Source: Nemertoderma westbladi (lineage: Eukaryota; Animalia; Xenacoelomorpha). Taken from it: DNA of 64,000 nt. Position 1 is the stretch's first letter. Each line of letters starts with the position of its first letter. Both the position numbers and the translations under genes were made by a program. Of this stretch, positions 9,290 through 33,319 are shown in pieces. The DNA lies in contig JAUCBJ010006792.1 of assembly GCA_032718475.1 (NCBI GenBank), positions 1 through 64,000 on the forward strand. Reading direction: 5' to 3'. A model generated the notes under the pieces. It was not told the origin of the DNA and ran no database searches. It saw nothing but the letters and a program-made list of their open reading frames with translations.

Positions 9290-9301
9290 CCTGTGTAAGT
9301 C

Positions 9302-9895: not shown

Positions 9896-10033
9896 GTTTG
9901 TTTGTACAGTTGAATGCCTACTGCTATATTACAGTTAAAGCAAGTTTAGTAATTCACTATCACTGTTAGCCTAGTAATTAATTACTGATATCGTCACTCA
10001 GTGCAACTTAATATATATACACCATATATTAGA

Positions 10034-10283: not shown

Positions 10284-11234
10284 ATCAATTATTTTAGAAT
10301 AATTAAATTTCTGAATTTTAGGGGTTACTTGGTTACTTTAACTTACTTTATTACCGTTATTTAAGCAGTAGTCCAACTGATATTGAGACCTAGTTGTTGT
10401 ATGGCAGGCCTACTATTTATAAATCGTTTGAGTTGATTTATAATATATATACCCGTTTTAATGGGTTTTTGTCAATATTTGAAATAAATGTTATTATTTC
10501 TGGAAAGAGTCACCACACAGAAGCTGTGCGCTCTCAGTGAAGTGCTACTTGTTGGACACTAAAACAAATAATTCTAATTTACCTAAGTTACTTAATACTA
10601 CAAATTACATACAATTCGGGGTGAGATTACAATCTCTAAATAAACACAAAAATTACACGTACGAATTTTTAGGGTAATTTTACAAGAAGTCTACAAACCA
10701 GCCTAACAAAGGGTTAGATTATCTGGTTATTACAACGGACAGAGTACTACGGTATTTGAAAATAATAAGTAGTAGTAAATATACTGCGTTGTCCAGATAG
10801 GAAAAATACCACCGTCTGACGACTTATAGCCGTATCGCTATAAGTACTACGTTATGTATCACGGAGTGTTCCTACCTAGAAGTTAATTACCGCGGTCTAC
10901 CAGAACCAACGTGCCTATTAACCACTTTACAACACAAATATACTGCCTACACGCTAATTACCTTCGGAAAGCACTGTACACTAAACCCTAAATTAGGTAC
11001 AAGTACTTGTACAACAAATAATCAGTAGTTAAAAATACTTGAACAGCTAAAAGAACCACGGCATCTGCTGGAGTGACCGGGGCACAAAATCACCAGTCTT
11101 TACCTACGCCAAGCAGCCCTGATGTAGTACCGGGGTTAATTTAACTATAACGGTATGTATAACAAGCACAATTACTGTAGGAATAAACTTGGGGTTATGA
11201 ATGTTGCGAATAATCGCATAAACTCTGAATAATA

Positions 11235-11810
11235 AATATTACGCTACCCGTACAAACTACTCAAACAAAATGCAGACCAAATACTGACAGACTACTATCA
11301 AGCCTAAACAAACAACGGTATATGCAGACTCCGAAATGGTTAGTTAGTATGCGTTCTAACCGAGTAGTACGACTTATTCTTTCGAGGGGGTTCACCTCAC
11401 AGCACTGGCAGCCCCTACTTTCCTAACTAGTACTTTTTTGGACATATGCTCTACACACACTACAGTCCCTTAAGACCTAACAACAGCCAGACAACAATCT
11501 AGCCTATAAATTATCTGAATGAGAAATATCACGGTACCTGTACAGATTACACAAACAAAGTACAGACCAAACGCTGGCAGACTACTATCAAGCCTAAATA
11601 CACTACAGTATATGCAGACTCTGAAATGGTTAGTTAGTATGCGTTCTAACCGAGTAGTACGACTTATTCTTTCGAGGGGGTTCACCTCACAGCACTGGCT
11701 GCCCCTACTTTCCTAACTAGTACTTTTTCGGACATATGCTCTACACACACTACAGTCCCTTCAGACTTAACAACAGTCAGACAACAGTCCAGCCTACAAA
11801 TTCTCTGTAC
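11235..11810 (-). repeat. ~290-bp tandem duplication in the 5' UTR (homologous duplication at ~28950-29510)
   Basis: TATGCAGACT at 11321 and 11611 with near-identical following sequence; 288-bp period in copy 3. Confidence 0.9.
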
Positions 11811-12072
11811 AATCTGAGCAGGCTTACACGCCTTCTGCTCAATATTAGCCTACAAATAAATAAAACTGACAGAAATAGGCGTAAGTAAAATCCCAATAAA
11901 AACCAGGCGTCCCCGATTAATTATTAAGACCTACTGGTATATAATTATCAAAATCGAATAATACTGCTGTACCTGTACTGCTGTAGGTACCGGTCCGGGT
12001 GGTTAGGTGGTCAGGCCTACTGGGTACCGGTTGCCCGTACTTCAGCTTTATTGCCTACTGCAATACAGAAGC

Positions 12073-12084
12073 TATATCTGTTAT
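12073..12084 (-). promoter_or_regulatory. Non-tRNA primer-binding site candidate of copy 2 (ATAACAGATATA)
   Basis: Abuts the LTR CA with no TGG. 11/12 complementary to the LTR-internal TATATCCGTTAT (12805-12816, minus sense). Confidence 0.6.
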
Positions 12085-13250
12085 TGTTCGCGCTTTCAGA
12101 CCTTTAGCAGTTTAACCTGCCAAATTGGGATGTCTTTTAGATGATAGATCGTCTTTAGCCTATGACAAGTATTTGATACACTACATTAGCTGAAGCCAGT
12201 CTATGCGCGATCATTCACCCGCTGGATATACCCGGGAGACTGGATTCAGAAGCCTAACCGTATTGCGGGGTAGGCCTACTGTATTATTCGACTGGTCGCA
12301 ATATATATAATCTCTGACAAATATTATTCACTTTCGGGAAATATTAACAGTTCCTTTAGGACGTGGCGCTTTAAATATATAAACAGAGTTATGACTTAAA
12401 CTAGACACAACGGGATGGCTATAGATTCACGTATATGGCGCATTCTTTAGGAGATGCTTCGTTATCAATCACAGTCATACACAATACTGCACAATGCTGC
12501 ACACTAATCTGCCGACCTTCACTAATTTTAGTCACATATAAGGAGAACAACAGACAATACGTGTAGGGCCTATAAAATAGCATTAGATTCACTTCAAACC
12601 ACTTAATGTAAGTCGCAATCGTTATATGTATCCGGTCTCTCTAACCTTTAGTATATCAAGAAGATTGGGGTGTCTGATTGTTTATCAGTATTCCAAATAT
12701 AATATTTCATCAACAAATATAATGAATAACCGACAGCAAAAGCAGTAATGTTAAGGTATGAATTATTATGAGTGACTGAGTGAGATATGATCAGTTATGA
12801 TTAGATAACGGATATACGTTCTACAATTAAGCCTACTAATGTTGAACTAAAGACTGAAACACGGAGGTTCCACGCCGGTGTTGTAGGCTGTGGACAAAAA
12901 TCACATACACTGACTCACTTCACTAGTTTCTATATACAATCTCCAACACAGAGGCAAAAAGCGCTCTGATTGGTCGACCGAACAAAGAGAGAACAAAGAA
13001 CAAAGAGATGTTCTACGTGGCAATATCAGCTGTTAGCCGTCATCATGGTATCTATACTGTTTCAAGAGGATCCGGCGTATTGCGTCATAGAATTGCTAAT
13101 CATGTCCGCTAAAGTACACATACAGAAGAAATGGCTTTTATGTCCTCTAAAACAACAGTACAGTAAGGACACGGCCTTTTATGCCTGTTAAACCAACTAC
13201 AGAGTACTTTACGGGGAAAATAACCGGCTAATTACGCAAAAGCCTTTACA
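12085..13250 (-). repeat. LTR of copy 2 (1166 bp), flanked by a PPT upstream and by the 5' UTR downstream
   Basis: Minus strand reads TGTAAAGGC...GCGCGAACA. PPT at 13251-13258; CCAAT box at ~12968. Confidence 0.9.
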
Positions 13251-13328
13251 CCGCTCCCAGAAAATGGGATTTAAGTCTATAAAATATAACAAATTACAGT
13301 TTCTAAAATATAAAAATACTCTAAACAG

Positions 13329-16300
13329 TTAGTCTTTCTTACGCGGACGGCGTTTACGCAGTTTTTTGAGGTTAACAAGAGTCCTTTTCTCTTTGGGGCA
13401 AGCCACTTTACTAGGAGGGCTGTAACTCCTGGGTGAAGGGTGCAATACAATTGCATCAGAAGGTTTAGGATTACGATCGGTGTATCCGCCGGTCGAGGTA
13501 CCTGGTTGATCGATATCAACTTCAGTGGAGCGAGGTCTAACGGCCTTTAGGGCGCGTCTTAGGACAGCAGCTCCTACGGGTCCTTGACGGGTCGTCTGGA
13601 CAATGGCGGTAGGCGGACCGTGAGTGGTAAGAAACTTCCTTGGTTTAATGGTTCTTTCCAGCTCGCGTTCTCGGGCTCGATATTCGTAGGGCCGTCGAGA
13701 TACTTCCTGTAACTCAGGGTGCGAGTTGATAAATAAATCGCCATACTCAGGGTCTTGACGGATGAAATTGATCAAATGATATGAAGTAATATCGTTAGGA
13801 TTGACGTTCCTAAGATATTTTCGAACAAATTTGGTGGAAATACACTCACCAACACGCTTCATTAGTTCGTAACTCGGTGTGCATGTTTTTTGTTCCACAG
13901 ACGCGAATAAATAAGGATGGAATGTGTAAACTCCCTCGTAAGAGCGTCCAGGGTAGTAGCGATGGCGGGCCTCACAATGTAAATCCGCATTCGCTTCCCA
14001 GGCTCGGATGTAGCGCAGGGTAATCATCTCATCTACGCTTTCTAAATCGCGGTTAAAGGGGCAATTATAACTGGCATGTCTTTTAAGTTGACAGTGGTGA
14101 CATTGGGTCATAAATTGGGGGCAGACTGCAAAAATATGCGAGTTATTAAGTCTGCAATACGCACAATAGATCTCCATCATCGGCTGTTCGTGGAAATAGG
14201 AGCAGGGTACGTCTGAGTCCATGGGTGTGAAATGGTCTCTCGATGCGCATAATCGACAACGTTTTCGAGAAACATAGTTGGCGTGTCGATAATCGTATGC
14301 GGTGAGACATTGTGGACCTTGATACCACTCCAAGACGTAATCGTTATCGCTGCTCCGGGGCGCTGTAGGCTGGATCGCGTCAGACTCTAAGCAGATTGGT
14401 TCGTCTTCCAATTGCATAGCTGAGGTAGGTGCGGCTGTCTCTGTAAGCGGACCCACTGTCTGAACTTCCACGACAGAATAACCCGTGGGTATTCGGGGTC
14501 TTTGTATAACAGATGAATGTAAGTTCTGTATACAAACGTCCTGAAAGAGAGCAAATCTCGCGCTGTTTAGCTTCTCCGCAGTTGAGTCTCTTAGGCTGAG
14601 TTTGGTCAGAGCGCGGTCCTTGAACTGACTATCAACGTTACGGAACGGAGTCAGAAAGCGCCTGAAACATTCGAAGCGGATGAATTTATTATGTTCATCT
14701 AACTTGGCGAGTTTGGTTCCAAGTATTAAGGGATGGGCGCGTATGGTACGACTGCACACATCGGCTAGCCAACCGGCAAGTGCTGCGTTTTCAAAGATCG
14801 TGTATATAGCTAAGGAGGGACGAAGTGGAACACTCATAAAGCTATACACGGCGCCAGGTGCGGTCAATGGTCCATCAAAGTATAAACGAGAATAATGATC
14901 TCCATATACTTGTTGGTAATTTATAGGATTTCCAACCTTGAAATTCCATCCGTATTCTTGAAAGGCAAGATGTCCGATGGAGGTTCGTTGTACTTTGGTA
15001 ATGCCGCTGGGTGTATTGGCATACATAGTGCGGAAGAAACCTCGGCCTTCTGCCCAGGGAGCAATCAGCTGAGTATCCACGAAAGGGTATGGGATGTTCT
15101 CCATATTCCGAAAGTCGTTTTGTAGATCGCCATAAACAGCTGAGCCGATTTTAAGGATTCTTTCGTTAAACAACATCTCGAGCACGGGTTGGGGTAACAT
15201 CGATCCATTGATACCCATGGCCAGTTTGCGCTCGGTGTCGGCGACGTAACGCTGCACGAGCTCGAATTGTCCATGTCGGAGTCTCTTTTGTGTCTCAGTA
15301 AGAGTTTCAAAAGAATAATCAATCACATCGGAACACGCTCGAGTAAATACGTGGGTAGAACCAGCGAGTCCTCGCATGTGTATCATCCGCGTAGTTCCCA
15401 GTTCTCCAACCGGAACGCTACCTTCGTTGTCATAGGTGACAACTCCATACATCTCGATAACGTTAAGAGTCTCATTCCACTCTTTAGTGGCGTTTTCGAG
15501 AGTCATTCCCACAGGATGCCATAAGGTAGCGCATTCGCTAGCATTAGGTAGGTCTCTATACTTTAAATATTGTGTGGTATATGTTTCCACATCTCCATAT
15601 CGTTGTATTCTTTCCTCCGCGAATAACACGTCAAGATTCCAGTGTACTAAACGAGTTTTGATGAATCCATCAAGATTATACGGAGGTATTGTTTCTTTCT
15701 CTATTCTGGAAACATTGTATGGTTTTCGAAATGAGTTTATTTTAACCAATTGATCCAGATGTTTATGCAGTTGTTCGAGTTCAACAAGATCGAGAGGATT
15801 TATGAGTGGCAGAAACCTCAGACTATGTGTAGGATCTTCCGGTTTTACCATGTAATATTGTGTTAGGTTAACGTAATAAGGGTGATCTTTGATCCCATAA
15901 AACGAGTCCGGTAAAGGTCTAGCGCGTATGTTTACATCGTGTACCATGCGACAGACAAGATCCGCTCTATTGTCCGGAGGTTCAACGAGTATACCATCTA
16001 CACGAGCGGCTTCGATGGGTGGACGTTGCAACATAGGAGCGTCAGCGATAAGCTCTCTAGATCTTAGGTTGATATCAACCGGTTGGGGTTGTATCGTCGC
16101 AAAGAGTTTGTCTCCAAAATGGGGAACCATCGAGGGATGAAGGATGGTTTTAGAGTAGAGATCCGTCATAAGGATTTGAGCTTTGGGTTGAGCTAAAGCT
16201 GCTTCTTCTCTCTCATCTAGTTTTATATGTCTCTCCTCGAGCTGATTTTCCTCCGCTTGTTGTTGTAGACGCTCATCTAGGAACTCTTGTAAAGAGTAGG

Positions 16301-17582
16301 TTCGTCCACGTTCGATGTCCTCTTCGAGATTTTGTATTTCTCTATCGAACTGGGGTAAAGCTAATTCCTTCACCGCTTGGACTTGTTGTTGCAATTTACG
16401 TTTCTCCAAACAATCGTAAGTTCCCTTTCCGATTTTCTGCCGAATAGCGTCTGACGCGTTTCGTACGACGCTCTCTTTGACTTCCGTAACGGGTTGTATC
16501 GAGGTGAAGCCGGGACGGTTGTGTGGGTTAAACGGCGATATTAGATGACCGCGTCCCAATCCAGCTAGGTAGGGTTGGCGAATATCTAGCGAGCCTACTA
16601 CCGGAGTGCCACCGATCAACTGTTCAGGTAACACTAGATCTTTGAACAGTGAATACAGTTCGGGAGGATCCGTGATACTATTAGGATCAAGAGTCTGAGG
16701 TCTAACTGAGGAATGAGGAGGTATGACCGAGTATTCCGGAACTCTGATCATTGGTTTGTTCAAGGATCGTTTGAGTCGAGCAACCGTAGGGGATACGTCG
16801 AACAGGTTTCGCTCGAAACTCCCATAAGTATATCGTGTAAAACTGTGTTTAGCGCAACGTCTCCGCGGATGTTTATGTCTTTCTGTTTGCTGATTGGGTC
16901 TAGGGCATTCGTCGCAGTAATACCAAAGACGCACGTCCTGCAGGGGAAACGCGGGTGATCGATCTCCAGTTTTACAATATTCCTCCATCTGTTCGAAGCT
17001 ATCTGGGACAACAGGTAGCGGTCGATCGGCGGTAAGATACATCATAGTAAAATAGAGTCGTTTGAGTTCTATCATAGGATCATGATGTATACCTTGGGGA
17101 TATCGAGTTTCGAGATTTTGTTGACTGGCAATATTGAGATATGTCTCTCTCAGGAATTCCAGATAATCGTTGAAGTCGCTGCGTTTATCCGGCTCTTCAA
17201 CGTCTTCCCTTTCGAGTTTGTTTCGAATAGAGTTCTCGTGTTCTATTCTCGGTTTATCGTTCCGACTCCGCTGGGTATGATATTTAAATAAAACCATTTC
17301 CCTTTCGGTATCTACATCGTCCGTATCGTGTAAATCGATAGGATGGCCGGTAGTTAAGAAGTCCATATACGTACCATTACGATGCGTATAGCGAGCGGTG
17401 AACTTTCTATAATCCAATTCACGCGTAAGTTGCTCCTGGGACATTGGCGGTTCGATATAACGACCATCATCCTCCGTAGTAGTTGGGCCAGCGTCGCCGC
17501 GTATCAAGCTATCGACAAACGCTTGTAAAGGTAGAGTATATCGCTCCCTAATACCGAGATCATCTTCTATCAACTCAGTCAT
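13329..17582 (-). CDS. ORF3 (env position), 1417 aa: N-terminal Cys/His motif, coiled coil, DEDDy-like (WRN/EXD/RNase D-type) 3'-5' exonuclease domain, three CCHC zinc knuckles, basic C-terminal tail
   Basis: Intact 4.25-kb ORF between pol and the PPT. ExoI VVTYDNEG (D718, E720); ExoII LPQPVLEMLFNERILKIGSAVYGDL (D819); FVDTQ; SIGHLAFQEYG; ExoIII PLRPSLAIYTIFE (Y927, E931). Knuckles CX2CX4HX9C, CX2CX5HX4C, CX2CX4HX4C at aa 1109-1174. No evident signal peptide or TM anchor. Confidence 0.85.
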   Translation of the reverse strand: MTELIEDDLGIRERYTLPLQAFVDSLIRGDAGPTTTEDDGRYIEPPMSQEQLTRELDYRKFTARYTHRNGTYMDFLTTGHPIDLHDTDDVDTEREMVLFKYHTQRSRNDKPRIEHENSIRNKLEREDVEEPDKRSDFNDYLEFLRETYLNIASQQNLETRYPQGIHHDPMIELKRLYFTMMYLTADRPLPVVPDSFEQMEEYCKTGDRSPAFPLQDVRLWYYCDECPRPNQQTERHKHPRRRCAKHSFTRYTYGSFERNLFDVSPTVARLKRSLNKPMIRVPEYSVIPPHSSVRPQTLDPNSITDPPELYSLFKDLVLPEQLIGGTPVVGSLDIRQPYLAGLGRGHLISPFNPHNRPGFTSIQPVTEVKESVVRNASDAIRQKIGKGTYDCLEKRKLQQQVQAVKELALPQFDREIQNLEEDIERGRTYSLQEFLDERLQQQAEENQLEERHIKLDEREEAALAQPKAQILMTDLYSKTILHPSMVPHFGDKLFATIQPQPVDINLRSRELIADAPMLQRPPIEAARVDGILVEPPDNRADLVCRMVHDVNIRARPLPDSFYGIKDHPYYVNLTQYYMVKPEDPTHSLRFLPLINPLDLVELEQLHKHLDQLVKINSFRKPYNVSRIEKETIPPYNLDGFIKTRLVHWNLDVLFAEERIQRYGDVETYTTQYLKYRDLPNASECATLWHPVGMTLENATKEWNETLNVIEMYGVVTYDNEGSVPVGELGTTRMIHMRGLAGSTHVFTRACSDVIDYSFETLTETQKRLRHGQFELVQRYVADTERKLAMGINGSMLPQPVLEMLFNERILKIGSAVYGDLQNDFRNMENIPYPFVDTQLIAPWAEGRGFFRTMYANTPSGITKVQRTSIGHLAFQEYGWNFKVGNPINYQQVYGDHYSRLYFDGPLTAPGAVYSFMSVPLRPSLAIYTIFENAALAGWLADVCSRTIRAHPLILGTKLAKLDEHNKFIRFECFRRFLTPFRNVDSQFKDRALTKLSLRDSTAEKLNSARFALFQDVCIQNLHSSVIQRPRIPTGYSVVEVQTVGPLTETAAPTSAMQLEDEPICLESDAIQPTAPRSSDNDYVLEWYQGPQCLTAYDYRHANYVSRKRCRLCASRDHFTPMDSDVPCSYFHEQPMMEIYCAYCRLNNSHIFAVCPQFMTQCHHCQLKRHASYNCPFNRDLESVDEMITLRYIRAWEANADLHCEARHRYYPGRSYEGVYTFHPYLFASVEQKTCTPSYELMKRVGECISTKFVRKYLRNVNPNDITSYHLINFIRQDPEYGDLFINSHPELQEVSRRPYEYRARERELERTIKPRKFLTTHGPPTAIVQTTRQGPVGAAVLRRALKAVRPRSTEVDIDQPGTSTGGYTDRNPKPSDAIVLHPSPRSYSPPSKVACPKEKRTLVNLKKLRKRRPRKKD

Positions 17583-19212
17583 ATCTGCTATGAGTTTATC
17601 AATATTATAATGAGTTTATATATTAGGCTAGCGGGCGTCGCTGCTTACCCCTCTTTTGCCCCCGGACAGTGCAAGATCCTCAGCGCCGATGTAACGTCGT
17701 CGCTGTGCTTTCGCCAACGATGTAGCTACACAACGACAACGATAACCGGCACAAGTCACTCCACTGTCCGTCCCAAAGGCTTAGATGTACTTCAGGTTCT
17801 TTCTGGAGAGTTAGGGTTACTTTCACAATTGCGACTAGCTACTGTAAACACACTTTAGCAGTAACATTCACCTATGAACGCACAAATTCAACACAACTGC
17901 CATAAACTGTACACATTCGGGCCATTTGTCCGTTAGTCAGTACCTTCCAGAATGTCACTGTATTTATTATGTATCCTTGGATACTAGCAGTGCGCTGTTT
18001 ATTCCCTATGCTATTCAATGGGGCAAGCTTTCTATTGTTCTTTTAACTCACTTCTAATTCTAGCGTGGTTGTTGCCATGGTGACATTATGGAAAGCTAGC
18101 GGTAGAATTAGGGTAATTCTCATGCATACAGATCTGGGATGCTATTTAATAGTAATTCTTTAATTGTCAATATCCTCTCTATATATGATTTTATAAATTT
18201 TATCGGCTATTGACTATATATTGGAGATTCTCGCACACCAATACACTTAATAGAGTGAATCTCCGCTCCCATGATCTATTAATTAATGGAATTTTGGGAA
18301 TGTTATAAATTGTACAAAATGACAATTTATTAAATTCATTGAAATATATGAATTTAAATTTATTCCCGTAAATTTTATTATTTAATGTTAAATAGACGTA
18401 ATTTTATTCCAGAACGTGTCTGGGGACTGGGATCCTAGATTCTAGGAATTTTGTCTTTTTAAGAGTATCGGTAAGTGCTACGATATCTTAATCGACTAGA
18501 ATTTTAAAGGATCTAAAATTTGACAGATTTTGTAAATATTAATAGTTAATATTTAGGATGAGCACCAGTTTATTCCAGAACTTGTCTGGGGACGTTAACC
18601 ACTGATTCTAGAATTTTGTCTTTCAAGTATATCGGTGGGTGCCGCGATATCTTAATCGACTAGAATTGCAGATGGTCAAAGGGTTTAACAAATTTATTTT
18701 GCGTTATACGCTACTGTTAAAGGGACATCACGCTACTATATGTATTATTTAATATACGGTATGAGAGCAATATCGCACGAAGCAATGTCAGTGTGAAGAG
18801 GCAAGTCGTTTCCAAGGTCTACCCAGAGCTTGGTTTAGCCGAGACACGAGGATCTGAACTTTGCATTCCTAATACTCTGCCTACCAATAATACTTGAATA
18901 TAGTAGTGGCTTTATTGTACTTTAATAAGTATGGACATTTCATCTTACTGTAGTTACGTATTCGTAATGTAATACGGGCAGCAAGGAAAGATAAAAAGAA
19001 TTGTTTCTCGCCGTCGCACTAAATATATAATATAAGTAATTACGTAATAAACGCGAATATATTGCACTAATCTACTAAATAATCGCTAAAATAACATGCT
19101 ACTAAATAAAATTAAATAAAACGATTATAATAAAATTACATAATAATACATACATAAATATAAAATAATAAGAATATAAAATAATATGGTCACACACCCA
19201 CTCCATATGCTA

Positions 19213-20852
19213 CTAAGCTGGGGAGTCCCTAGATGTTTGTTGGATTAGGGAGGTGGTCGTGGGAAGAGTATCTTGCCTCCCATAGTTTCCGGAGAGTTCT
19301 CTGTCTCTTTCCAGTAAACATAAGCGACCAACTGGGCGATAGAGCTTCTGCGTCTCGAAGACAATTCCCGGTTTCTTGAAGTTACGTCGCATGACGACGA
19401 GTTCTACCGATCGCACCAAACCGTCATCCGAGATGTGAGTCTCGATGATACGACCTGTCTGCCACCGCTTACGTGGAAGTTCTACATCCACAATAAGAAC
19501 CATGTCTCCAGCGCTGACGTTTTCTTGCTGCGCAAACCACTTAGTTCGAAGTTGTAGCGTGGGCAGATAATGTTTTTCGAAATGGTCAGCGAAACGACGG
19601 GATAACAACTGCATGAGTTGCCAAGTTTGCCGGCAGTATTCGTCTCCGTCTGTGATTTCCGATTGTGGGAGCATGGCTACAGGTTTCTTTAGTAGGAAAT
19701 GCGCGGGTGTTAGCGCTTCCAGGGAATCGGGACTCGATGAGACTGGCATAAGTGGTCTCTCGTTGAGATAGGCGGCGATTTCCTCCATTAACGTCCGCAA
19801 AAGTTCATTGGTGAGATACGCGCGGCAAGGCACTATAAAGTGAAATGCTGTCTTCACACTTCTTATTAATCTCTCCCAACTTCCTCCCCACCAAGGGGCG
19901 TCGGCGGCGTTGAAGGTCCAGCTAGACGCTGTTACTCGTAGCTGATCGTCCACCTGTCTTTGGTTCCAATCTTTGACGTAAGCTTTGATTTCATTGTTGG
20001 CACCAATGAAGTTTGTTCCCTTATCAGATCTCATCGTGTTACTAGTGCCAAAGCGAGCGATCTGTCGTCGTAAGCTTAATAGAAAGCTGTTGGTAGATAA
20101 ATCGTTCACCATGTCGAGATGGATAGCTCTACAAGTCATACAAACAAAGATGACACACCATCTCTTGACTATAGTCCTAGCACGATATACTTCAATAGGG
20201 CCAAATAAATCCACACCGGTAGTAGTAAAGGGTGGTTCATAGAAGCTTACTCGTTCCCTAGGTAATTCTGCCTCTCGCTGTGTTAAAGGCCTACTGAATG
20301 CTTTCCTACAGGGTATGCAGTTCCTAAGAACTTGGTTCAGAGCTCTACGGGGTTTATAAAAATAATAGCGAGTTCGAATTTCGCTAAGAACTCATTCCCT
20401 ACCAGCATGATAAAGTTTGCTGTGAACGTCTACAATCATCTTGACTTGTATTTCAAGATTTCTAATGAGTATGGGAAACTTAGTGTCAAAGGATAGTGGA
20501 GCATTCGTTAATCTTCCTCCAACACGTATCAACCCATCTATCATTGTGCTAGAGAAACGATCCCTTAAGCGCATCTGTGGATTTCTCAACAACAGGAAAT
20601 ACTTATCGGAATCCTCATAGTATTGCAGGAGTCTCAGCATCTGCTTGTTGGTTTCTTCATGCTCCTGATAACTGATCTTCTCCTTCAGAAACCTGTCGGG
20701 TATCTTATATTTGGGAAGATCTTTAATAACATGGACCTGCACTGATGTTATTGGAGCGGTATCACCTTTGGCCTTCATCCTGGAGTATTGATGGTGAAAA
20801 CATCTCTTTAAATATGTAACGGCCTTACAGAGCCGATTCCAGGAACTGTAGT
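19213..20852 (-). pseudogene. pol: BEL/Pao pol integrase region of copy 2, 5'-truncated, with one premature TGA at 20392-20394
   Basis: ORFs 20392-20862 and 19213-20214 are collinear with copy 1 pol. CGA>TGA at HAGRE*. Homology stops at 20852. Confidence 0.93.
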
Positions 20853-21371
20853 TGATAAACAACCGCGACCTCTATACTAACAGCAGAACTGTTGAACAGA
20901 CCAATACCCGTTAATATCCTTCTGCCAACCTAATAAGTTCTCGTCTAACCAATAAGACACAAAGACTGCTCTACTGTTAAGTAAAGGGGATCAGGAGCGT
21001 GCTATTACTAAATTGTAAGGGTTGCTAAATACAAAACCGCTACTTACCGTTAGATGGCGCTAATCTGCCGTCCACTAATATATTTTACTAATTTTACACT
21101 ACTCCTGCAAAATCGCTTGTTCCTTTCTCTACCGATCGCTCGATAGAGAGCTAACTGTTCGAATCTATGAGCCACGCGGGAATAACCAAAACAATAAACC
21201 CGAGTCGGCTCCCTAAGCTTACTTAAGACGAGTGCGAGAGGCCTTGCACTCAGAGTATTCTTACGCCTAATTTTATCACTATTAAAGCACGCTATTACCT
21301 ACGTCTTTCTAATCGCGAATACTGGAGGTTCCCTAACGTAATGTGTGAATGCGAGAATATTTAAAATATCA
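20853..21371 (+). mobile_element. Possible 5' LTR of an unrelated LTR element inserted in pol (followed by a UTR-like tract to ~22180)
   Basis: Begins exactly at the pol break with TGATA; a matching TATCA at 21367-21371 is followed by AAA-TGG; AATAAA at ~21193. No second copy in the window. Confidence 0.4.
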
Positions 21372-22239
21372 AAATGGTACAGTATCTGTTTCTACGTGGA
21401 TAATACCACTCCGGGTCTAAAACTGCCCGCGACTGGCTTTAGGCCAGCAAAATTACTAGCGTATCGTGCGTACCGAATAGTGCATTCTAGCTGATTGTCC
21501 GCTAATGCAAATAACCGCTCAGCGTGAATAGTTTACAGTACACTAATTATTACCTTAGCTACTCTCCGCTATGCTGCGTACTAATTCTTAATTTTTTACT
21601 AATTAATTACAGTCACAAATATTTAACAGCGTACTAATTACTAAGAGTTCCAGAATACGTAATTCTAATTTATCACGCAACAGGTTTCGCTAGTAATAGC
21701 CTAATTTGCCGTATTACTTTGACCTAATCAGTAACTAATTATTGTAACTAAGAAATAGAAATCAATCAAAGGAAAAGAGCGCCTATCTAAGCATTCGTAA
21801 TCTTAGGCACACTTCAATAACACACCAATCAGCGTTAGAAATCACAGTTTACAATTGTGCAATTCACTACTCGTACTCCACACTCAACGTTGTAATACGC
21901 GCAGGCCTCTCCCGGGTACATCTAGGATTCCTAACTAACCCAATTCCTGCCCCCTAATACTAAATAGAGACAAAACCTGGATCATCAGCCCCCTAATTTG
22001 CTGTACCGGCGATCGGTCTGCGTGCCGCAGTGCAAGTTACCCGCCCGCAACGGTGACCCTAGCCAGCGTTGCCCGCTTTGAATCCTCCGCTCTCTCCTAG
22101 TCGCCCAACCCCCCGATGCGCCCACCGCCCACTGGCACCTTAGCCCTCCATTACGCTAATAGCTACCGTAGCGGCGCATGCAAATCACAAAGTCTGACAG
22201 TTTCAGGAATCCCTTGGGATTATTGCGCAGAAAAGAATC

Positions 22240-24645
22240 ACATAGAATTAGGCATATCAAGAAGGTATTTTTTTTAAAGTTTTGTAAATATATATTTCAA
22301 TTTGGAAGCCCGAATATTTTCGGGAAGGTCATTCCAGATTTTGACGCCCTGAAATTTGAAAGAGCGATGAGCGACAATGAGACGGACATTAGGGAGATAG
22401 TAAAGAGCGATGAGCGACAACGAGACGGACATTAGGGAGATAGTAAAGAGCGATGAGCGACAACGAGACAGACATTAGGGAGATAGTAAAGAGCGATGAG
22501 CGACAACGAGATGGACATTAGGGAGATAGTAAAGAGCGATGAGCGACAACGAGACAGACATTAGGGAGATAGTAAAGAGCGATGAGCGACAACGAGACGG
22601 ACATTAGGGAGATAGTAAAGAGCGATGAGCAGCAACGAGATGGACATTAGGGAGGTAGTAAAGAGCGATGAGCAACAACGAGACGGACATTAGGGAGATA
22701 GTAAAGAGCGATGAGCGACAACGAGACAGACATTCGGGAAATAGTAAGAGAGCGATGAGCGACAACGAGACGGACATTAGGGAGATAGTAAAGAGCGATG
22801 AGCGACAACGAGACGGACATTAGGGAGATAGTAAAGAGCGATGAGCGACAATGAGACGGACATTAGGGAGATAGTAAAGAGCGATGACCGACAACGAGAC
22901 GGACATTAGGGAGATAGTAAAGAGCGATGACCGACAACGAGACGGACATTAGGGAGATAGTAAAGAGTGATGAGCGACAACGAGACGGACATTAGGGAGA
23001 TAGTAAAGAGCGATGAGCGACAACGAGACGGACATTAGGGAGATAGTAAAGAGCGATGAGCAACAACGAGATGGACATTAGGGAGGTAGTAAAGAGCGAT
23101 GAGCAACAACGAGACGGACATTAGGGAGATAGTAAAGAGCGATGAGCGACAACGAGACAGACATTCGGGAAATAGTAAAGAGAGCGATGAGCGACAACGA
23201 GACGGACATTAGGGAGATAGTAAAGAGCGATGAGCGACAACGAGACGGACATTAGGGAGATAGTAAAGAGCAATGAGCGACAATGAGACAGACATTAGGG
23301 AGATAGTAAAGAGCGATGAGCGACAACGAGACAGACATTAGGGAGATAGTAAAGAGCGATGAGCGACAACGAGACGGACATTAGGGAGATAGTAAAGAGC
23401 GATGAGCGACAACGAGACGGACATTAGTGAGATAGTAAAGAGCGATGAGCGACAACGAGACAGACATTCGGGAAATAGTAAAGAGCGATGAGCGACAACG
23501 AGACAGACATTAGGGAGATAGTAAAGAGCGATGAGCGACAACGAGACGGACATTAGGGAGATAGTAAAGAGCGATGAGCGACAACGAGACGGACATTAGG
23601 GAGGTAGTAAAGAGCAATGAGCGACAACGAGACAGACATTAGGGAGATAGTAAAGAGCGATGAGCGACAACGAGACAGACATTCTGGAAATAGTAAAGAG
23701 CGATGAGCGAAAACGAGACGGACATTAGGGAGATAGTAAAGAGCGATGAGCAACAACAAGACGGACATTAGGGAGATAGTAAAGAGCGATGAGCAACAAC
23801 GAAACGGACATTAGGGAGATAGTAAAGAGCGATGAGCAACAACGAGACGGACATTAGGGAGATAGTAAAGAGCGATGAGCGACAACGAGATGGACATTAG
23901 GGAGATAGTAAAGAGCGATGAGTGACAACGAGACGGACATTAGGGAGATAGTAAAGAGCGATGAGCGACAACGAGACGGACATTAGGGAGATAGTAAAGA
24001 GCGATGAGCGACAACGAGACGGACATTAGGGAGATAGTAAAGAGCGATGAGCGACAACGAGACGGACATTAGGGAGATAGTAATTTTTCGATGTTGTCAT
24101 GTCGCTCTCGTATTATATGGGTGAATGTCAGAGACCTTTGAAAATAAATTAGAGAGACTTGAATTGCCGGGATTGTTGGATATATCAAACATTACCGTAG
24201 CTACTTGCTGTATGTATAACTTTTCAATTGGTAGAATCCATAGTTCTTTGTAAAGTTGAGTAGCTGAGGATCGGGAGTCGGAAAATATATCTCTTAGTAC
24301 TTTATTAACACACACCTTGAGTGGGTGAATGAAAGAATGATGTGTTACCCCAAACTATAAGAGCATACAAAAGATGTAAGGATGGATTTAGTAAGTAATA
24401 TACTTATCTGCAGTTTGGTCCTATCTATTCCATAATTAGCTTACTAGGCCCTCATGAGTACCAGCAGTTAATGTAAAGTAAAGCATACGCAATATTTGGC
24501 GCAGAAGGACATAACGTAACTTGTAAAATATTCCAATGGATTTTGATATTTTTTTGTGTATATACTATATAGTTAGTGTGTGTTTTCCAAGACATGTCAG
24601 AATCAATCTAAAGCCCTAAGTATTTAGTCATCAGAGTTTCAGAAA
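22240..24645 (-). mobile_element. 3' fragment of a CR1/L2-group LINE ORF2 (LINE A), split by the minisatellite
   Basis: Minus translation KYLGL..DSDMSWK.H...LYKELWILPIEKLY...HPYNTR..NYYLPNVRLVVAHRSFKFQGVKIWNDLPENIR, the typical LINE C-terminal WN.LP motif. Confidence 0.8.
22359..24083. repeat. Minisatellite, 43-bp unit, ~40 copies
   Basis: Unit AGAGCGATGAGCGACAACGAGACGGACATTAGGGAGATAGTAA, starting at 22361, 22404, 22447 and onward. Confidence 0.97.
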
Positions 24646-25061: not shown

Positions 25062-25571
25062 CTACTACTACTAGGATCGGCATGCTGCATTGCAGCTGCA
25101 TTTTTAAGAATGCTGTGCCGGCTTGTCAACAAAATTGCACCGCCACAACTCCCTATCACCCATGACATTTGCTAGATCATCCGCATCTTTAAGGCCAGTG
25201 TCCTTTAAGATGCGTCTCAAGAAAGTCATGGGCTCTCCACCATGCTTATTCACTCCATGAGGCTGCCAAAGTACAAGATTATGCACTGGCTGGTCCTCAC
25301 GGCGAAAGCAATGTCCTGCAAAGCGGAGCCGATTTTGTTCTAGTGACAAGCTTGGGGGAACCAATGAAACACCTCCAATGTTATATAGTGTCTGGTTGGA
25401 GATGTGTGCATTGTACTTGACACAATGAACCCGGCGTAGCATTCTTGTGAATGTGCCATCCAGAGATTTGGTGTCCTCAGCAGTTAGAGCCCAGCATGGA
25501 CTCCCGTAGAGGAGTACTGGAACTACTGCTGCTCTAAATAATCGGACCTTAAGTTTCCGATTAATTCTCGG
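25062..25571 (-). mobile_element. 5'-truncated RTE-clade LINE fragment inserted in LINE B
   Basis: KVRLFRAAVVPVLLYGSPCW...RMLRR...RLRFAGHCFR; (TAG)n tail; 8-bp TSD TGCCTCGA at 25054-25061 and 25572-25579. Removing it restores HSYKLRGIKCATN. Confidence 0.9.
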
Positions 25572-26225
25572 TGCCTCGAAGTTTATATGAGTGGCCACGA
25601 GTAATTGAAAGTGATCGCTGGAAGTATTTTTCAGGATCAAGGTTTAAAAGATTATGCATTATTTTATAAGTGTACACCAAATCAATATGGATCCTACGTA
25701 ATTCCAGCGGTTGCAAATTTAAAAATGAAAGCCTATCTACATAACACATGTCACAATCCAACTTACACCGATAGAATAGTCAACGGGTGAAATAACGTTG
25801 AGTCGCTTCAATTTTGTCCGTAAGGCCGAGAAATGGCGCGCCAGAATAAAATGGGTTCCAGACACAGCTAGCGTACTCTAGAATGGGTCTAACAAACGCT
25901 GTATATGCACATAATAATGCCTGAACTTTAGAAGTTAAAAAGCATCGAAATATTTTATTTATAGACCGATAAGCAGAGGATGTAATAGTCATTACATGTT
26001 CTGTAAATTTAAGATCCTTATCCACAATCACTCCAAGATCGCGATACGAATTAACATTTGCAAGTTGCGTATCATTAATTCTATATGATGAAGGCATAGC
26101 TACATTACCAAGGGTGAGGCTTTTACATTTTGTTTCTTCTAAATTCAACTGCCAATCACTAGACCAACTGGAAAAAATATCAAGATTTTTCTGCAGTAAT
26201 ATACGGTTATCAATATTATCAGCAC

Positions 26226-26429
26226 TCAGGGAACTCAGCACCACTCTACCACATATTATCTTGCCCCTCTAACCGGAAATCAATTTCAACGTGGGCGGAA
26301 GAAGAGTAGGAATCTTGTACATTTAAATTTATTTTAATGTATATTTATAATATATTGCTATATATTTTAAGTATATTGTTATTTGCCAATATCACGGCGT
26401 AATTCATTCATTATTTTAATATTACGAAA
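26226..26429. other. 204-bp unidentified insertion in the LINE B RT domain
   Basis: Flanked by AGCAC (26221-26225, 26430-26434). Removing it restores FADDTKIFCADNIDNRILLQ. Confidence 0.7.
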
Positions 26430-27310
26430 AGCACAAAATATCTTGGTATCGTCAGCAAAGAGCCTAGAATTAATACCGGAAAGGTGCGTAGGCATATCAT
26501 TAATGAAAATAATAAATAATAGGGGACCGACACACGAACCCTGTGCTACACCCGATATAACTTTGTAAAAATTAGAAAAGCTTTCACCTATTTTCACTCG
26601 CTGAACACGATCAGTTAAATAGCTGGCAAACCAGCGATGCAAATTACCTGTAATTCCATAACATTTAAGTTTAAGTAACAATTTACTAGGCACAACAGAG
26701 TCAAATGCCTTGGCATAGTCTGTGTATACTACATCAGTAAAACATTTTGCATTAAGGGCAGTTGCCCAATTATAGGTGCAGTCTAAAAGTTGAGTGGTAG
26801 TGCTACGGCCCTTAATAAATCCGTATTGTTCATCTTTTATTAAATTGTTCCTTTTTAAAAAACGCGACATTTCATGAACTATGATTTGAACTAGAGTCCA
26901 GCTCACCAACAGAGTGCCATCGGATCCGATCTGAACCGATCGGATCCAACAGCTTCAAACACTTTCAGACAAACTCCAACAGTCCAACAACTTCAAACAG
27001 ATTGAGACAGTTTCAAACAGATTCAAACAGTTTCAAACAGAATCAGACAACTTCCAACAACCTGTCAATCACTCCACCCACACTCAACCGCAACCCCAAC
27101 TCAACTCCCATCTTCTTGCGCGCAGATAGAATGAAAGCTTTTGAAACTACTAAAGGAACTCCATTCATAAAGCCACAATAACGACAGAGTGGACTGGCCA
27201 CTGGCGGCGCCCTTGAACATTCACACTGTAACTTAAGCTGACCTGAAGGAACAGCCCATTAGGGAGGTCGGTATTTCTCTTTATTCCTGCCGCTATCTTT
27301 GAATAACACA

Positions 27311-28585
27311 TGTAAAAGCTTCTGTGGGATATAACTGGCCCCTTTTGCTTCGCAATCCAGTTTCCCCCCAAGCGCTGGAATACTCTAAAAATGTTCTCTA
27401 ACTGTATATATATTCCCCTCGCCCGCAAGGTACCGTTACAGGTGTTTTAACGGACATAAAAGTCATTCTTCTATATACGTGCTTTAGCGGACATGGTAAG
27501 GCAAAAAACCTGCAATGCACCAAATACCTTTACACGGCTTGGCCTTGATGATTCAGATTGCGACATCTAGCAGCTGGTTGCTGGCATGGAAACAGCCATT
27601 GGACGCATGGTTCTTTGTTTGGCTTGAGCCAATCAGAGCGATTTTTTCTGTCGACGTGTAGATATTCGGCCGATCATACTAGGAGTGTTTAGTCTTACTG
27701 TTTTTCTTGATATAGTTTTGTTGTAGCTATCTAGGCCAGGAACACCGGCTCTAGAGTCAACTCGTTTTCATACTTTAGAAGAAACATTAGTAGGCTTAAA
27801 TTATAGAGCGTATAACTGTTATCTTAACAACTCATATCAATCAGTGCAGTCTTGTCACATCTTGTCATATCATATGTTAACCTACCGTCTTAATGCTTTT
27901 TACTGTTGTTATATTTTGTATTAGTTGGTTGAATATTATTTGGAGAACATTTATAAAGAACCCAAATTTCCCAATTTTCTTGATACACTACAGGTTAGAG
28001 AGACGGGTTATATATAGCGATTGCGACTTATATTATTGTGTATGTAGTGAATTTAATGCTATTTGATAAGCACTACATTGTTCCGTTGCTGTTCTCTTTA
28101 TATATGATAAAAATCATTGACGGTCGGCAAATTAGTGGGCAGTATTGTGTGTTACCGGTAGTGTGCATGATTGTGACTGATAACTAAGCATTTCCTAAAG
28201 AATGCGCCTCATACGTGAATCATAAGCCTTACCGACTTGCCGTTGTGATTAGTATAAGTCATATCTCTGTTTACCTAGATAGAGCGCCACGTCCTAAAGG
28301 AACTGTTAATATTTTCCCGAAAGTAAATAATATTAGTCAGAAATTTATTAACGATCAATCGAATAATACAATACAGTAAGCTTACACTGCAATAATAATC
28401 TAAGCCCTCAGAATCCAGTCTCCCGGGTATATCCAGCGGGTGAATGGACGCGCACTAGGCTGGCTTCTGCTAATGTTGTGTTTATTGGTATTAAATATTT
28501 GTCATCTTCTAAAGTCTATTTATAAACCAAAAGACATATAAATTTTGGCAGGTTAAACTGCTAAAGGTCTTCAAAAGCGCGTACA
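27311..28585 (+). repeat. 5' LTR of copy 3 (1275 bp)
   Basis: TGTAAAAGC...GCGCGTACA, not preceded by a PPT. CCAAT box at ~27629. Confidence 0.9.
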
Positions 28586-28596
28586 ATAACAGTTAT
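28586..28596 (+). promoter_or_regulatory. Non-tRNA primer-binding site candidate of copy 3 (ATAACAGTTAT)
   Basis: Abuts the LTR end; perfect 11-nt complement of ATAACTGTTAT at 27812-27822 inside the LTR. Confidence 0.6.
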
Positions 28597-28652
28597 TGAC
28601 TTTATTGCAGTAAGCAATAAAGTTGAAAGTACCGGTCGACCGGTAAAACCTG

Positions 28653-28779
28653 AACCGGTACTTCTGTAGGTCAGTAGGCCCAACTGCCAGAACCGGTACT
28701 GCTGTAGGTCCGTAGGTCCAACTGCCAGAACCGGTACTTCTGTAGGTCCGTAGGCCCAACTGTCCTAACCGGTACTTCC
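28653..28779 (+). repeat. 38-bp tandem repeat, ~3.3 copies, in the copy 3 leader
   Basis: AACCGGTACT starts at 28653, 28691, 28729 and 28767. Confidence 0.9.
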
Positions 28780-30818
28780 AGTATAAGTCCATTAGTATTA
28801 TTCGATTTGATTATTGCATACCGGTAGGCTGTTTAAGAGATTAGGGACTGTACACCCCATGTTTCTTTTGGAGCTTACTTATTTCTGTCAGTTTTATTTA
28901 CATGTAAGTTAATATTGAGCTGAAGACGTGTAAGTCTGCTCAGATTGTTCAGATAATTGTAGGCCGGACTGTTGTCGGATTGTTGTTGGGTTTGGAGAGA
29001 TTACTGCGTGTGTAGAGTTTGTCCGATAGAGTGCCAGTTAGTAAGTTGGGGCAGCCATAGCTGTAAGGTCAATCCCCTCTTAAAGAATAAGTCGTACTAC
29101 CGTGTTAGAACGCATACTAACTAACCATTTTGGAATCTGCACATACTGTAGTTTATTTAGGCTTGACAGTATTCTGCCAACGTTTTGGCCTGTGTTTGTT
29201 TGTGTAGTCTGTTCAGGTACCGTAATAGTTATTACTCAGATATTTTGTAGGCTGGATTGTTGTCTAGCTATTATTAGGTCTGAAGAGATTGCTGCTTGTG
29301 TAGAGTTTGTCTGATGAAGTGCCAGTTAGTAAGTTGGGGCAGCCATAGCTGTAAGGTCAATCCCCTCTTAAAGAATAAGTCGTACTACCGTGTTAGAACG
29401 CATACTAACTAACCATTTTGGAATCTGCACATACAGTAGTTTATTTAGGCTTGGTGGTAGTCTGCCAGCGTTTTGGTTTGTATTTGTTTGAGTATTCTGT
29501 ACGGGTAGCGTAATATTTATTATTCAGAGTTTAAGCAATTATTCGCAACATTCATGTCCTCAAGTTTATTCCTACAGTAATTGTGCTTGTTACACATACC
29601 GTTATAGTTAAATTAACCCCGGTACTACACGGGCTGCTTGGCGTAGGAAAAGACTGGTGACTTTGTGCTTCGGTCACTCCAGCAGATGCCGTGGTTCTTT
29701 TAACTGTTCAAGTATATTTAACTACTGATTATTTGTTGTACCAGTACTTGTACCTAATTTAGGGTTTAGTGTACAGTGCTTTCCGAGGTAATTAGTGTGT
29801 AGGCAGTATATTTTGTGTTGTAAAGTGGTTAATAGGCACGCTGGATCTGGTAGTCCGCGGTAATTAACTTCTAGGTAGGAACACTCCGTGATACATAACG
29901 TAGTACCTATAGCGATACGGTTATAGGTCGTCAGGCGGTGGTATTTTCCTATCTGGACAACGCAGTGTATTTACTACTACTTATTATTTTAAAATACCGT
30001 AGTACCCTGTCCGTTGTAATAACCAGAAATCTAACCCTTTGTTAGGCTGGTTTGTAGACTTCCTGTAAAATTACCCTAAAAATTCGTACGTAATATTTTT
30101 GTTGTGTTTAATTAGAGATTTAATCTCACCCGTATCGTAAGTAATTTGTAGTATTAAGTAACTTAGGTAAATTAGAATTATCTGTTTTAGTGTCCCATAA
30201 ATAGCACTTTACTGAGAGCGCCCAGCTTCTGTGTAGTGACCCCCAGAAATAATAACATTTATTTCGAATATTGAAAAAACCCATTTTAAACGGGTATATA
30301 AATATTATAAATCAACTCAAACGATTTATAAATAGTAGGCCTGCCATACAACAACTAGGTCTCAATATCAGTTGGACTACTGCTTAAATAACGGTAATAA
30401 AGTAAGTTAAAGTAACCAAGTAACTCTAAAATATTCAGAAATTCAATTATTCTAAAATAATTGACATACCGGTATTTACCATAGGCTTACTATATTTATT
30501 TCTATAAATTTGAGCTGAAATCATACCGGTATTCTGTAATTAATTCTAGTTCATAATTATACTTATATATACTATAAGTGTAAGCTGCATACCGGTATTC
30601 ACGATAGGCCTATTATATATTTATATATATTTGTGCTAAAATTATATACCGGTACTCTGTGACAAACCTAGTTTACAATACTTATATATACTATAAGTGT
30701 ATACCGGTATTCTAATATACTGTAATAAATTACCGGTACTAGGTCAACGGTCATACTGAACTACTAGACTTGCTTTAACTGTAACTATAGCAGTAAGCAT
30801 TCAACTGTATAGCTAAAT

Positions 30819-31363: not shown

Positions 31364-31375
31364 GATACACACAGG

Positions 31376-33319
31376 ATGGGAGTGGCTAAAGATACGATGG
31401 ATCCAGCTGTTTGGAAGAGGTCGGCAGCAGGATATGTGCAGGGATTCTTCGGCTCCTTAGAGCGATTAGAAGAACAACTGTTTCGACAACCCCAAGGACC
31501 TCAAGAGCAGGAAGAACTGCTATACCAAGTACGCGAAAGAACCCTACGCATTCGACTAATCCTATCAGCTTTTGAGGAAACTTCCAAAAGAAGACAGGAC
31601 ACGTTGCTGCAGGTTGCTGTCAAAACTTGGTTCCAGCGGGTAGGTCTCAAAGTACAAGAAACGGACCAGTGGAAATCCCAGCTGTCTGAGAGACTAACCT
31701 ATGAAGAACCAACCGATGCCACCCTTTCTCAAGTGGAAGGCGAAGAGACCGCAGAGAGACCACGAACGAGAGACGCCATAGACATTTATCTGTCCGACTA
31801 TCAGCGATTCCTAGGAGACAAAGAGTTGAGGAGACGGCTGTCTGGACTTTCCCCTAATAGTGAAGGAACCCAGCGTGTGTTAGACTCAATCGATGCTGAA
31901 ATGTTAGCTGCTAACCAAGCTGAATTTGATGAAAAACTCCGCCTCACTAGAGTCCAAGAAGAACAAGTAAAGAAAAGACGGATTGAGGAACGAAAGGCGG
32001 CAGCAGTAGCAGCGGTAATGGCAGAAGCAGAAGTGGACCGAAAGGCAGCAGCAGCGGCAGCGGCAATGGCAGAAGCAGAAGTGGAAAGAAAGACAGCAGC
32101 AGTAGCAGCGGCAATGGCAGAAGCAGAAGTGGAAAGAAAGGCAGCAAAGGCAGTGGCAGAAGCAGAACGGAGAGCGTCTGAGGAGACTACCCAACTGGAG
32201 TTGGAAAATCTGCAAGAGACGCAAGACAACATAAATAAACAGTTAACTGCTAGTCACATGCAGATGATGAGAAAATCTACTCCCAAACGCCAGGGATACA
32301 CATCATCGGAAGAAAGCGAAACCACCGATCCTGAAGGCGGAGGAAATAGATCTCGTCTAAGCAGGCGTAGAAAAACATCTTACCGTCACAAATTGCCTGA
32401 TTTGCCCCCAGCTGTTAGAAGACAACTAGCTAGCACAGACTTGAGTAGTATAGAACCTACAGACCAAATTATTAAGGTCAAAAGACTCCCTACTATAGTT
32501 GATGAGCCTGAAATAATTAGGCCTGTCGTTCCCAAAGTCACTCCTGTGTTAGAGACCCCTGTACTTCCAGAGCTTAACTCTAAATTCCCTTTACACAGTA
32601 CTACACTGCCTGTGCCCGGTAGAACAGTCCATGAGAATATCCCTGTCCTGGAAGCTGAGAGAGAAATCAAAGATTTGTCTCCCGTCGTCCCACATCAGCC
32701 CGCTACAATGTTGGCGACTCCCGCTTCGGCGGTCGAGTGGGTAGAGGAGGGACGGCGGGGGATGAATCTCCTGCTCGGACAGATGCAGGAGACTGTCTAC
32801 CAACTTAAGGGAACAGTAAGGGAAGGTAGGGCAGAATTGCAAGAAGTGCAGCAAAGTATCGCGCTAGAACGCGACAAATTAGTCAATATACAAAATGGTA
32901 TACCAATACCCCCTGTAAAATTGTGTCAACCTGTTAGGTCTGAAGTATTACATGCGCAAGGTGTGGAGCCTACACGCATCTATACTGCTAGTGAAGTAGA
33001 AACTCCTATAGCAAACCCTATTAAGGGTGATTATAGACCTGTTATTAATGATATCCCCTATAGACCTGACAATGATCCGAGAAATTTATATACCGATAAT
33101 TCGATATTAAATAACACGATGGCCCAAGAAAGCTTTACGCGTCAGATGGCTAGAACAGAAGCCCGCCAAGCGGTCAAAGTGGGAGAGATCGTCAAATTCA
33201 ATGGAGATGAGATGAAATGGTTACCTTTCAACGAATATTACAAAGATAGCATACAAAACTCTGTACTATCTAACGGAGAGAAACTTAGGTTCCTCATCGC
33301 TATTGGACATCGTTTTTGA
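31376..33319 (+). CDS. gag: BEL/Pao Gag N-terminal 641 aa, 3'-truncated (last residues come from flanking DNA)
   Basis: Open ORF with a coiled coil carrying 3 x 16-aa Ala-rich repeats, then the start of the DUF1759-like domain. Confidence 0.85.
   Translation: MGVAKDTMDPAVWKRSAAGYVQGFFGSLERLEEQLFRQPQGPQEQEELLYQVRERTLRIRLILSAFEETSKRRQDTLLQVAVKTWFQRVGLKVQETDQWKSQLSERLTYEEPTDATLSQVEGEETAERPRTRDAIDIYLSDYQRFLGDKELRRRLSGLSPNSEGTQRVLDSIDAEMLAANQAEFDEKLRLTRVQEEQVKKRRIEERKAAAVAAVMAEAEVDRKAAAAAAAMAEAEVERKTAAVAAAMAEAEVERKAAKAVAEAERRASEETTQLELENLQETQDNINKQLTASHMQMMRKSTPKRQGYTSSEESETTDPEGGGNRSRLSRRRKTSYRHKLPDLPPAVRRQLASTDLSSIEPTDQIIKVKRLPTIVDEPEIIRPVVPKVTPVLETPVLPELNSKFPLHSTTLPVPGRTVHENIPVLEAEREIKDLSPVVPHQPATMLATPASAVEWVEEGRRGMNLLLGQMQETVYQLKGTVREGRAELQEVQQSIALERDKLVNIQNGIPIPPVKLCQPVRSEVLHAQGVEPTRIYTASEVETPIANPIKGDYRPVINDIPYRPDNDPRNLYTDNSILNNTMAQESFTRQMARTEARQAVKVGEIVKFNGDEMKWLPFNEYYKDSIQNSVLSNGEKLRFLIAIGHRF

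Follow-up and report, generated by a model that had tools for sequence, protein, structure and literature searches.

By default, LTR retrotransposons prime reverse transcription with a host tRNA, a step that is open to interference by host tRNA fragments. To our knowledge, self-priming has been demonstrated experimentally only in the Tf1 group and has been predicted in some plant lineages. The accessible part of one study (PMC6317226) describes self-priming for Tf1/sushi elements and Tcn1 and, by prediction, for the plant copia lineages TAR, Houba and Osr-1, and takes as the criterion for a plant self-primer a complementarity of at least 10 bp beginning 0-5 bp after the LTR. In the BEL/Pao superfamily, the accessible description of Achilles from the olive fly reports an 18-nt site complementary to tRNA-Tyr (PMC4580426), and the available sections of a BEL/Pao survey (PMC3118150) and of the Sinbad paper (PMC554778) contain no passage on a tRNA or a primer-binding site. 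No report of self-priming in BEL/Pao was found in full-text searches, which covered literature outside subscription journals and Repbase. A nematode BEL element is said to encode its own primer; this report was not found in the literature and is not relied on here.

The DNA analysed here (the window) comprises 64,000 nt, positions 1-64,000 on the forward strand of contig JAUCBJ010006792.1 of Nemertoderma westbladi (assembly GCA_032718475.1). Three pieces belonging to a single LTR retrotransposon family occur within its first 33 kb; their main parts are as follows:

1-2688, forward strand: pol of copy 1, open from the window edge, with Peptidase_A17 (RNase H region), integrase H2C2 and DUF5641
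5937-7153, forward strand: 3' LTR of copy 1, 1217 nt, with a polypurine tract (5929-5936) just before it
7154-9301, reverse strand: gag (DUF1759) of the downstream unit of copy 2, in two frames, broken at 7154 by copy 1
12085-13250, reverse strand: LTR of copy 2, 1166 nt, with a polypurine tract on its 5' side and the primer site on its 3' side
13329-17615, reverse strand: extra open reading frame of 1428 codons, with three CCHC-like knuckles and a weak DEDDy-type 3'-5' exonuclease lead
19213-20865, reverse strand: 3' part of pol of the upstream unit of copy 2, with integrase, DUF5641 and one stop; the 5' part is missing
27311-28585, forward strand: 5' LTR of copy 3, 1275 nt, preceded by a flank that is not a polypurine tract
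31364-33299, forward strand: gag of copy 3, truncated at its 3' end

Copy 1 consists of pol, a deleted extra reading frame, the polypurine tract and the 3' LTR, and is inserted head-on, in the opposite orientation, into the gag of the downstream unit of copy 2 at 7154. The LTR of copy 2 is common to two tandem units: a polypurine tract lies on one side of it, and leader and gag lie on the other. This arrangement points to tandem insertion or to recombination between LTRs. None of the three copies has both of its ends inside the window. The 5' part of pol in the upstream unit is replaced by 1.5 kb (20853-22350) unmatched elsewhere in the window, and a 43-bp tandem repeat (40 copies, 95% matches) occupies 22359-24083. 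In copy 3 the LTR is separated from gag by a leader of about 2.8 kb, and gag ends where a long array with a unit of about 1.5 kb begins (33313-64000; 85-97% identity, interrupted by short-period repeats). In copies 2 and 3 alike the leader contains a tandem duplication of 290 bp (11224-11807 and 28949-29528), and that of copy 3 also has 3.3 copies of a 38-bp repeat (28652-28778).

The element had been assigned to BEL/Pao in an earlier note made from the sequence, and the Pfam domains agree with this: DUF1759 in gag at 7113-8402 (E value 1.6e-12) and, in the pol frame at 1-2685, Peptidase_A17 (1.8e-36), Integrase_H2C2 (1.2e-06) and DUF5641 (2e-19). By this Pao-type domain set and its order the family is classed as BEL/Pao. 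In copy 1 the frame stays open through the RNase H region. Pfam matches were obtained in four of 11 reading frames, one of the four being the RT fragment of an unrelated element, probably of the non-LTR type, that lies in pieces at 25104-26954 on the reverse strand (RVT_1, E value 4.5e-17 at 26382-26954); 10-bp repeats lie at 26945-27070. The RT of the BEL/Pao family itself is absent from the window. The LTR features of BEL/Pao are present, namely TG...CA ends and a polypurine tract ahead of the 3' LTR. A Ty3/gypsy chromovirus-type pol, as expected of a member of Tf1/sushi, was not found, and no chromodomain family is among the Pfam matches. Among the 120 relatives listed of 244 longer ones, the closest are 29-41% identical and have the same families; those named come from sea urchin, tunicates, molluscs, fish and insects. 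With identities no higher than this, the family is a divergent animal one. A PDB relative of pol was not found by sequence, nor a pol locus in viral contigs, and a 28-nt conserved pattern of the LTR gave no match in metagenome contigs. In its host the family is very abundant: in one run 69,061 contigs align to 7.5 kb of it.

All three LTRs run TGT...ACA. The position of the LTR end, which the earlier note had fixed by the insertion junction of copy 1, is borne out by the DUF1759 match of the interrupted gag, which stops at that junction, and by run X4 of the public contigs described below, in which 12085 is the exact starting point of five of the eight listed pieces, their flanks being mixed. 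Pairwise identity of the three LTRs is 48-55% upstream, rises to 60-80% in an island of 45 columns, falls to 49-53% over the next 110 columns and reaches 77-83% in the last 700. The island contains a short LTR-internal site and a 17-nt motif ahead of it. In LTR elements the right end of the LTR is set by the 3' end of the minus-strand primer, which makes any sequence that pairs with the bases immediately behind the LTR a candidate primer. The sites concerned are:

27812-27822, forward strand: LTR-internal site of copy 3, predicted self-primer
28586-28596, forward strand: primer-binding position of copy 3, complementary to 27812-27822 at 11 of 11 bases, with no gap to the LTR end
12805-12816, reverse strand: LTR-internal site of copy 2
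12073-12084, reverse strand: primer-binding position of copy 2, complementary to 12816-12805 at 11 of 12 bases
6375-6386, forward strand: LTR-internal site of copy 1, from which a primer site was predicted

The letters and coordinates of these sites in the earlier note are correct in all three copies. In copy 3, the reverse complement of 28586-28596 is identical to 27812-27822; the pairing sets in with the base that follows the LTR and ends at base 11. In copy 2, 12084-12073 pairs with 12816-12805 at the homologous LTR position, with a single A:C mispair at position 6. The three LTR-internal sites are homologous in the LTR alignment, and primer site and LTR-internal site lie 720-763 nt apart. 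A complementarity of at least 10 bp, as used for Tf1-like self-priming, is present in both copies, with 11 contiguous bases in copy 3 and, in copy 2, 11 paired bases out of 12. A primer-binding site starting with TGG, in turn, was found 0-5 nt after the 5' LTR at neither of the two window junctions, as had been noted earlier; TGG is also absent from the three loose ends that fall at the junction among the 21 listed in the public contigs (36 more exist).

The pairing could be a coincidence, an AT-rich near-palindrome that is present twice, so that a direct repeat reads as a complement; the copy 3 11-mer is in fact one base off its own reverse complement. Upon dinucleotide shuffling of the LTR, an 11/11 match arose in 11 of 5000 shuffles for copy 3 and an 11/12 match in 74 of 5000 for copy 2. 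Within the leader, the background is five of 1989 11-mers with an exact complement in the LTR for copy 3 and one of 1989 for copy 2, and 10-13 of about 1988 12-mers pair with the LTR at 11 of 12 bases, several of them from a second conserved pairing. Against coincidence, the match falls on the first position of the leader in copies 2 and 3 alike, and the LTR sites it involves are homologous. The earlier note had itself cautioned that the motif is AT-rich and quasi-palindromic, a caveat that loses its force with the copy-1-type primer site, which is not palindromic and yet matches its LTR site. The complement letters predicted for that site were found in public contigs, as described next, and coincidence is very improbable.

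Covariation between the two sites had been claimed from the window, where it is weaker than stated. There is one compensatory pair, at position 8, and there is one broken pair in each copy. The copy 2 primer site pairs equally well (11 of 12) with the LTR site of copy 3, and the copy 3 primer site pairs at 9 of 12 with that of copy 2; matched and swapped pairings total 22 and 20 of 24, respectively. The LTR site of copy 1 provides a further prediction, as it differs from the copy 2 primer site at positions 1, 5 and 6, and the primer site of the copy 1 subfamily should carry the corresponding letters; the earlier note had made this prediction in advance.

This prediction was compared with public sequence from seven runs, all in the form of contigs; six contain part of the stretch, and four studies are represented. 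Four runs were aligned to 12040-12132 (80% likeness, 2% share). Only three rows make up the variant table of this region: 12084 (position 1), 12080 (position 5) and 12079 (position 6). At each of them the predicted letter was found. Three changes within eight positions would fall on the predicted places with the predicted letters about once in 1500 per haplotype by simple arithmetic. In run X1, the share of the predicted letter in the summed depth, which is not equal to copy number, is 163391 of 429099 (38%, 39 contigs) at position 1, where variants include the flank letters of 3' and solo LTRs, 108662 of 295343 (37%, 21 contigs) at position 5 and 202903 of 290633 (70%, 45 contigs) at position 6. 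The values in run X3 are 90698 of 265379 (34%, 14 contigs), 87602 of 206500 (42%, nine contigs) and 166941 of 206469 (81%, 19 contigs). Both are DNA runs, and X1 may be the source sample of the window; X4 barely reaches the primer site. In run X5, which carries a second organism label and might be RNA, the three variants share a depth of 16.6, occur in one contig each and have end distances that step with their positions. This fits a single contig, record 25, carrying all three predicted letters together; the record has seven differences, of which these three are listed.

The share at position 6 exceeds that at position 5 by about one third, and at position 6 the more common letter is complementary to the LTR site of copy 2 itself. 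Such an excess is expected if a further class of copies matches the copy 2 LTR site fully. The mismatch of copy 2 looks like a minority state, and a CpG-type transition would produce it. The rows of the table all lie at least 34 letters from a contig end in some run, and the callable stretch appears to be limited to about 12077-12095, with positions 9-12 and the flanks outside it; because only central positions are callable, the table is no proof that the others are invariant. In contigs aligned to 5900-13400, no variant falls at the LTR sites or the primer site among the 40 listed of 1144. The variants at positions 1, 5 and 6 largely refute a coincidental origin of the pairing. Across copies the primer-binding site appears to vary together with the predicted self-primer; no contig spans the 720 nt between the two sites.

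The duplex might instead be an RNA structure, serving packaging, dimerisation or translation control, with the priming done by some host RNA, for instance an internal tRNA fragment, that binds at this place or close to it. The region is indeed structured. Besides the duplex it has two predicted hairpins and a second conserved complementarity of 13 bp between LTR and leader:

28357-28369, forward strand: LTR arm of the second complementarity, with its partner at 28795-28807
28544-28565, forward strand: predicted hairpin close to the LTR's 3' end, formed in all three copies
28599-28623, forward strand: predicted hairpin that immediately follows the primer-binding position, in copies 2 and 3

The second complementarity, which in copy 2 joins 12293-12281 with 11964-11952, is kept in both 5' copies, and its LTR arm is present in copy 1 as well. 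The accessible part of PMC6317226 also records priming by half-tRNAs in Ty1/copia lineages. The pairing described here, however, covers exactly the bases that a primer must occupy, and the primer-site variants at positions 1, 5, 6 and 8 could not be followed by one tRNA. The half-tRNA pattern is absent at the primer sites, judged by the general rules for tRNA anticodon loops. No tRNA was found within the window, and there was no Rfam match over 27200-29000 at E values up to 1. Priming by a host RNA beside a purely structural duplex is quite unlikely.

Some form of priming by the LTR-internal site is, by contrast, very likely. The form that probably applies is Tf1-like, with a primer of 11-12 nt cut from the 5' end of the element's own RNA. 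The RNA would start at the site or no more than about 25 nt from it, and 720-763 nt of R and U5 would loop out as the primer pairs with the 11-12 bases that directly follow the terminal CA of the LTR, the one step that can be read directly in copies 2 and 3. The RNase H of the element would cut on the 3' side of the duplex, as in Tf1, and RT would extend the short primer. Plus-strand synthesis terminates in primer-binding-site sequence, and a self-primer copied in this way in every cycle would therefore re-template that site, making it track the LTR site up to the length of the primer. Such copying would explain both the covariation and the sharp limit at 11-12 nt. The long distance from primer to primer-binding site and the location of RT outside the window weigh against self-priming. 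A primer joined by removal of an intron from the LTR was considered and rejected: the primer sequence is contiguous in the LTR, and no GT/GC-AG junction yields a run of at least 10 bases in copies 2 and 3.

Two further LTR motifs bear on where the RNA starts:

27783-27799, forward strand: motif a short way upstream of the site, kept in each of the three LTRs and possibly a core promoter
27993-27999, forward strand: splice-donor-like motif, found in the three LTRs (near 6591 in copy 1, near 12645 in copy 2)

The site and its upstream motif form an island of conservation, in which 29 of 50 columns are invariant, compared with 9-17 upstream and 3-6 downstream. The island closes a U3-like stretch that aligns poorly. 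A T precedes the first A of the 11-mer at all three sites, giving a pyrimidine-purine start. The CCAAT box that had been put forward as conserved aligns in two of the three LTRs, 183 and 157 nt upstream of the site, and is absent in copy 1, so it is a weak argument for the start site. The donor-like motif lies about 170-200 nt downstream of the LTR-internal site; its use would require a start upstream of it, and splicing from it could yield an RNA for the extra reading frame. Contigs on 5900-13400 show no joint at this motif among the 15 listed of 51. As a splice acceptor, TTTGGCAG near the LTR end was rejected, since copy 1 lacks the AG and still keeps the hairpin. The TATA-like motif at 6860, which the earlier note had named as another possible promoter, is not kept in copy 3.

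Neither AATAAA nor a TATA box is conserved across the LTRs, and R is not fixed by them. The same duplex could prime by another route, in which the primer is a longer fragment from an upstream start or the 3' end of the genomic RNA, from the 3' LTR, trimmed by a nuclease; the sequence and the covariation fit any route that places the 3' hydroxyl of the site on the primer site. In copy 2 two motifs, one resembling a TATA box and one an initiator, lie about 100-120 nt upstream of the site, and the extra reading frame has its exonuclease lead. The pairing, however, ends at 11-12 nt, as expected for a short primer that is copied whole, and the upstream TATA-like motif is not conserved. When the RNA of copy 3 was folded in silico, the duplex had a pair probability of about 0.5-1.0 for starts 0-25 nt upstream of the site and of at most 0.05 for starts 35-150 nt upstream, so that the predicted pairing is gone once at least 35 nt of upstream sequence are added. 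Averaged over the core pairs, the values were 0.51-0.99 for starts 0-25 nt upstream and 0.00-0.05 for starts 35-80 nt upstream. These values depend on the ends chosen: the probability falls from 1.0 to 0.73 to 0 with leaders of 60, 150 and 300 nt, and in copy 2 the mean peaks at 0.35 and half of the pairs never rise above about 0.6. Hairpins are predicted on both sides of the primer site, and folding of the whole R-U5-leader is not robust. Folding is a fragile, weak hint of the duplex. On this evidence, and on that concerning the exonuclease given below, a primer of different origin on the same duplex is unlikely.

The extra reading frame, between pol and the LTR, occupies the position of env and is nearly an orphan. 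It has no Pfam match, and the exonuclease call lies under the Pfam thresholds; exonuclease and CCHC clusters of a protein atlas score at most 0.87, below the thresholds of the atlas. One relative was found in 1.84 billion representatives (E value 2.7e-06, 30% identity over 150 residues), which itself has sub-threshold matches to 3'-5' exonuclease and zinc knuckles; no relative was found in metagenome contigs. A single-sequence structure prediction for part of the protein had a mean pLDDT of 30.6 and was discarded. In copy 1 a remnant remains at 4319-5823 on the forward strand, from which residues of about 500-1375 are missing. According to the accessible part of PMC5408684, the Juno and Vesta LTR elements of bdelloids carry a DEDDy exonuclease as ORF3, and such ORF3s in LTR elements are without a demonstrated role. 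A part for the extra reading frame in priming is speculation. It is very unlikely that, unlike in Tf1, the RNA 3' end or a longer leader is trimmed to the duplex by a 3'-5' exonuclease that the element has captured in this frame.

In its accessible description, the arrangement in Juno and Vesta resembles the present one in having an enzymatic extra reading frame after pol in place of env (PMC5408684); in the Nemertoderma family the exonuclease is a weak lead, the frame is far longer and zinc knuckles are present. Achilles shares the superfamily, the domain set and the TG...CA LTRs with the Nemertoderma family, which, unlike Achilles, is without a tRNA-type site. The closest likeness in priming is to Tf1 and Tf2 of S. 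pombe, Tj1 of S. japonicus and the Tf1/sushi group of Ty3/gypsy, which likewise have no tRNA site. In that group, too, a stretch of about 11 nt immediately following the LTR is complementary to LTR-internal sequence and a stem-loop lies near the LTR end, and as far as the available parts of two reports go (PMC7175516, PMC5341516), the geometry of Tf1 matches that of the Nemertoderma family. The differences are that the latter is a BEL/Pao element, that its primer and primer-binding site are 720-763 nt apart in an LTR of 1.2 kb and that it has the extra reading frame after pol. The start site and the cleavage have been demonstrated in Tf1, whereas here they are predicted. The family is a BEL/Pao lineage outside Tf1/sushi and likely works like Tf1 at the priming step.

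If this is true, self-priming would be found in all three LTR superfamilies, which would suggest that independence from tRNA evolves repeatedly; programs that look for TGG would label such families as having no primer-binding site. That Tf1-like self-priming evolved independently in a third superfamily we consider a good probability. In plant Tcn1 (Ty3/gypsy) and in the Ty1/copia elements TAR, Houba and Osr-1, self-priming was deduced from sequence with a criterion of the same type, which, in the form given in the accessible part of PMC6317226, is satisfied by copy 3. These plant elements belong to superfamilies other than BEL/Pao, and since self-priming had already been predicted for TAR in Ty1/copia in the same source, BEL/Pao would be a further superfamily and not the first exception.
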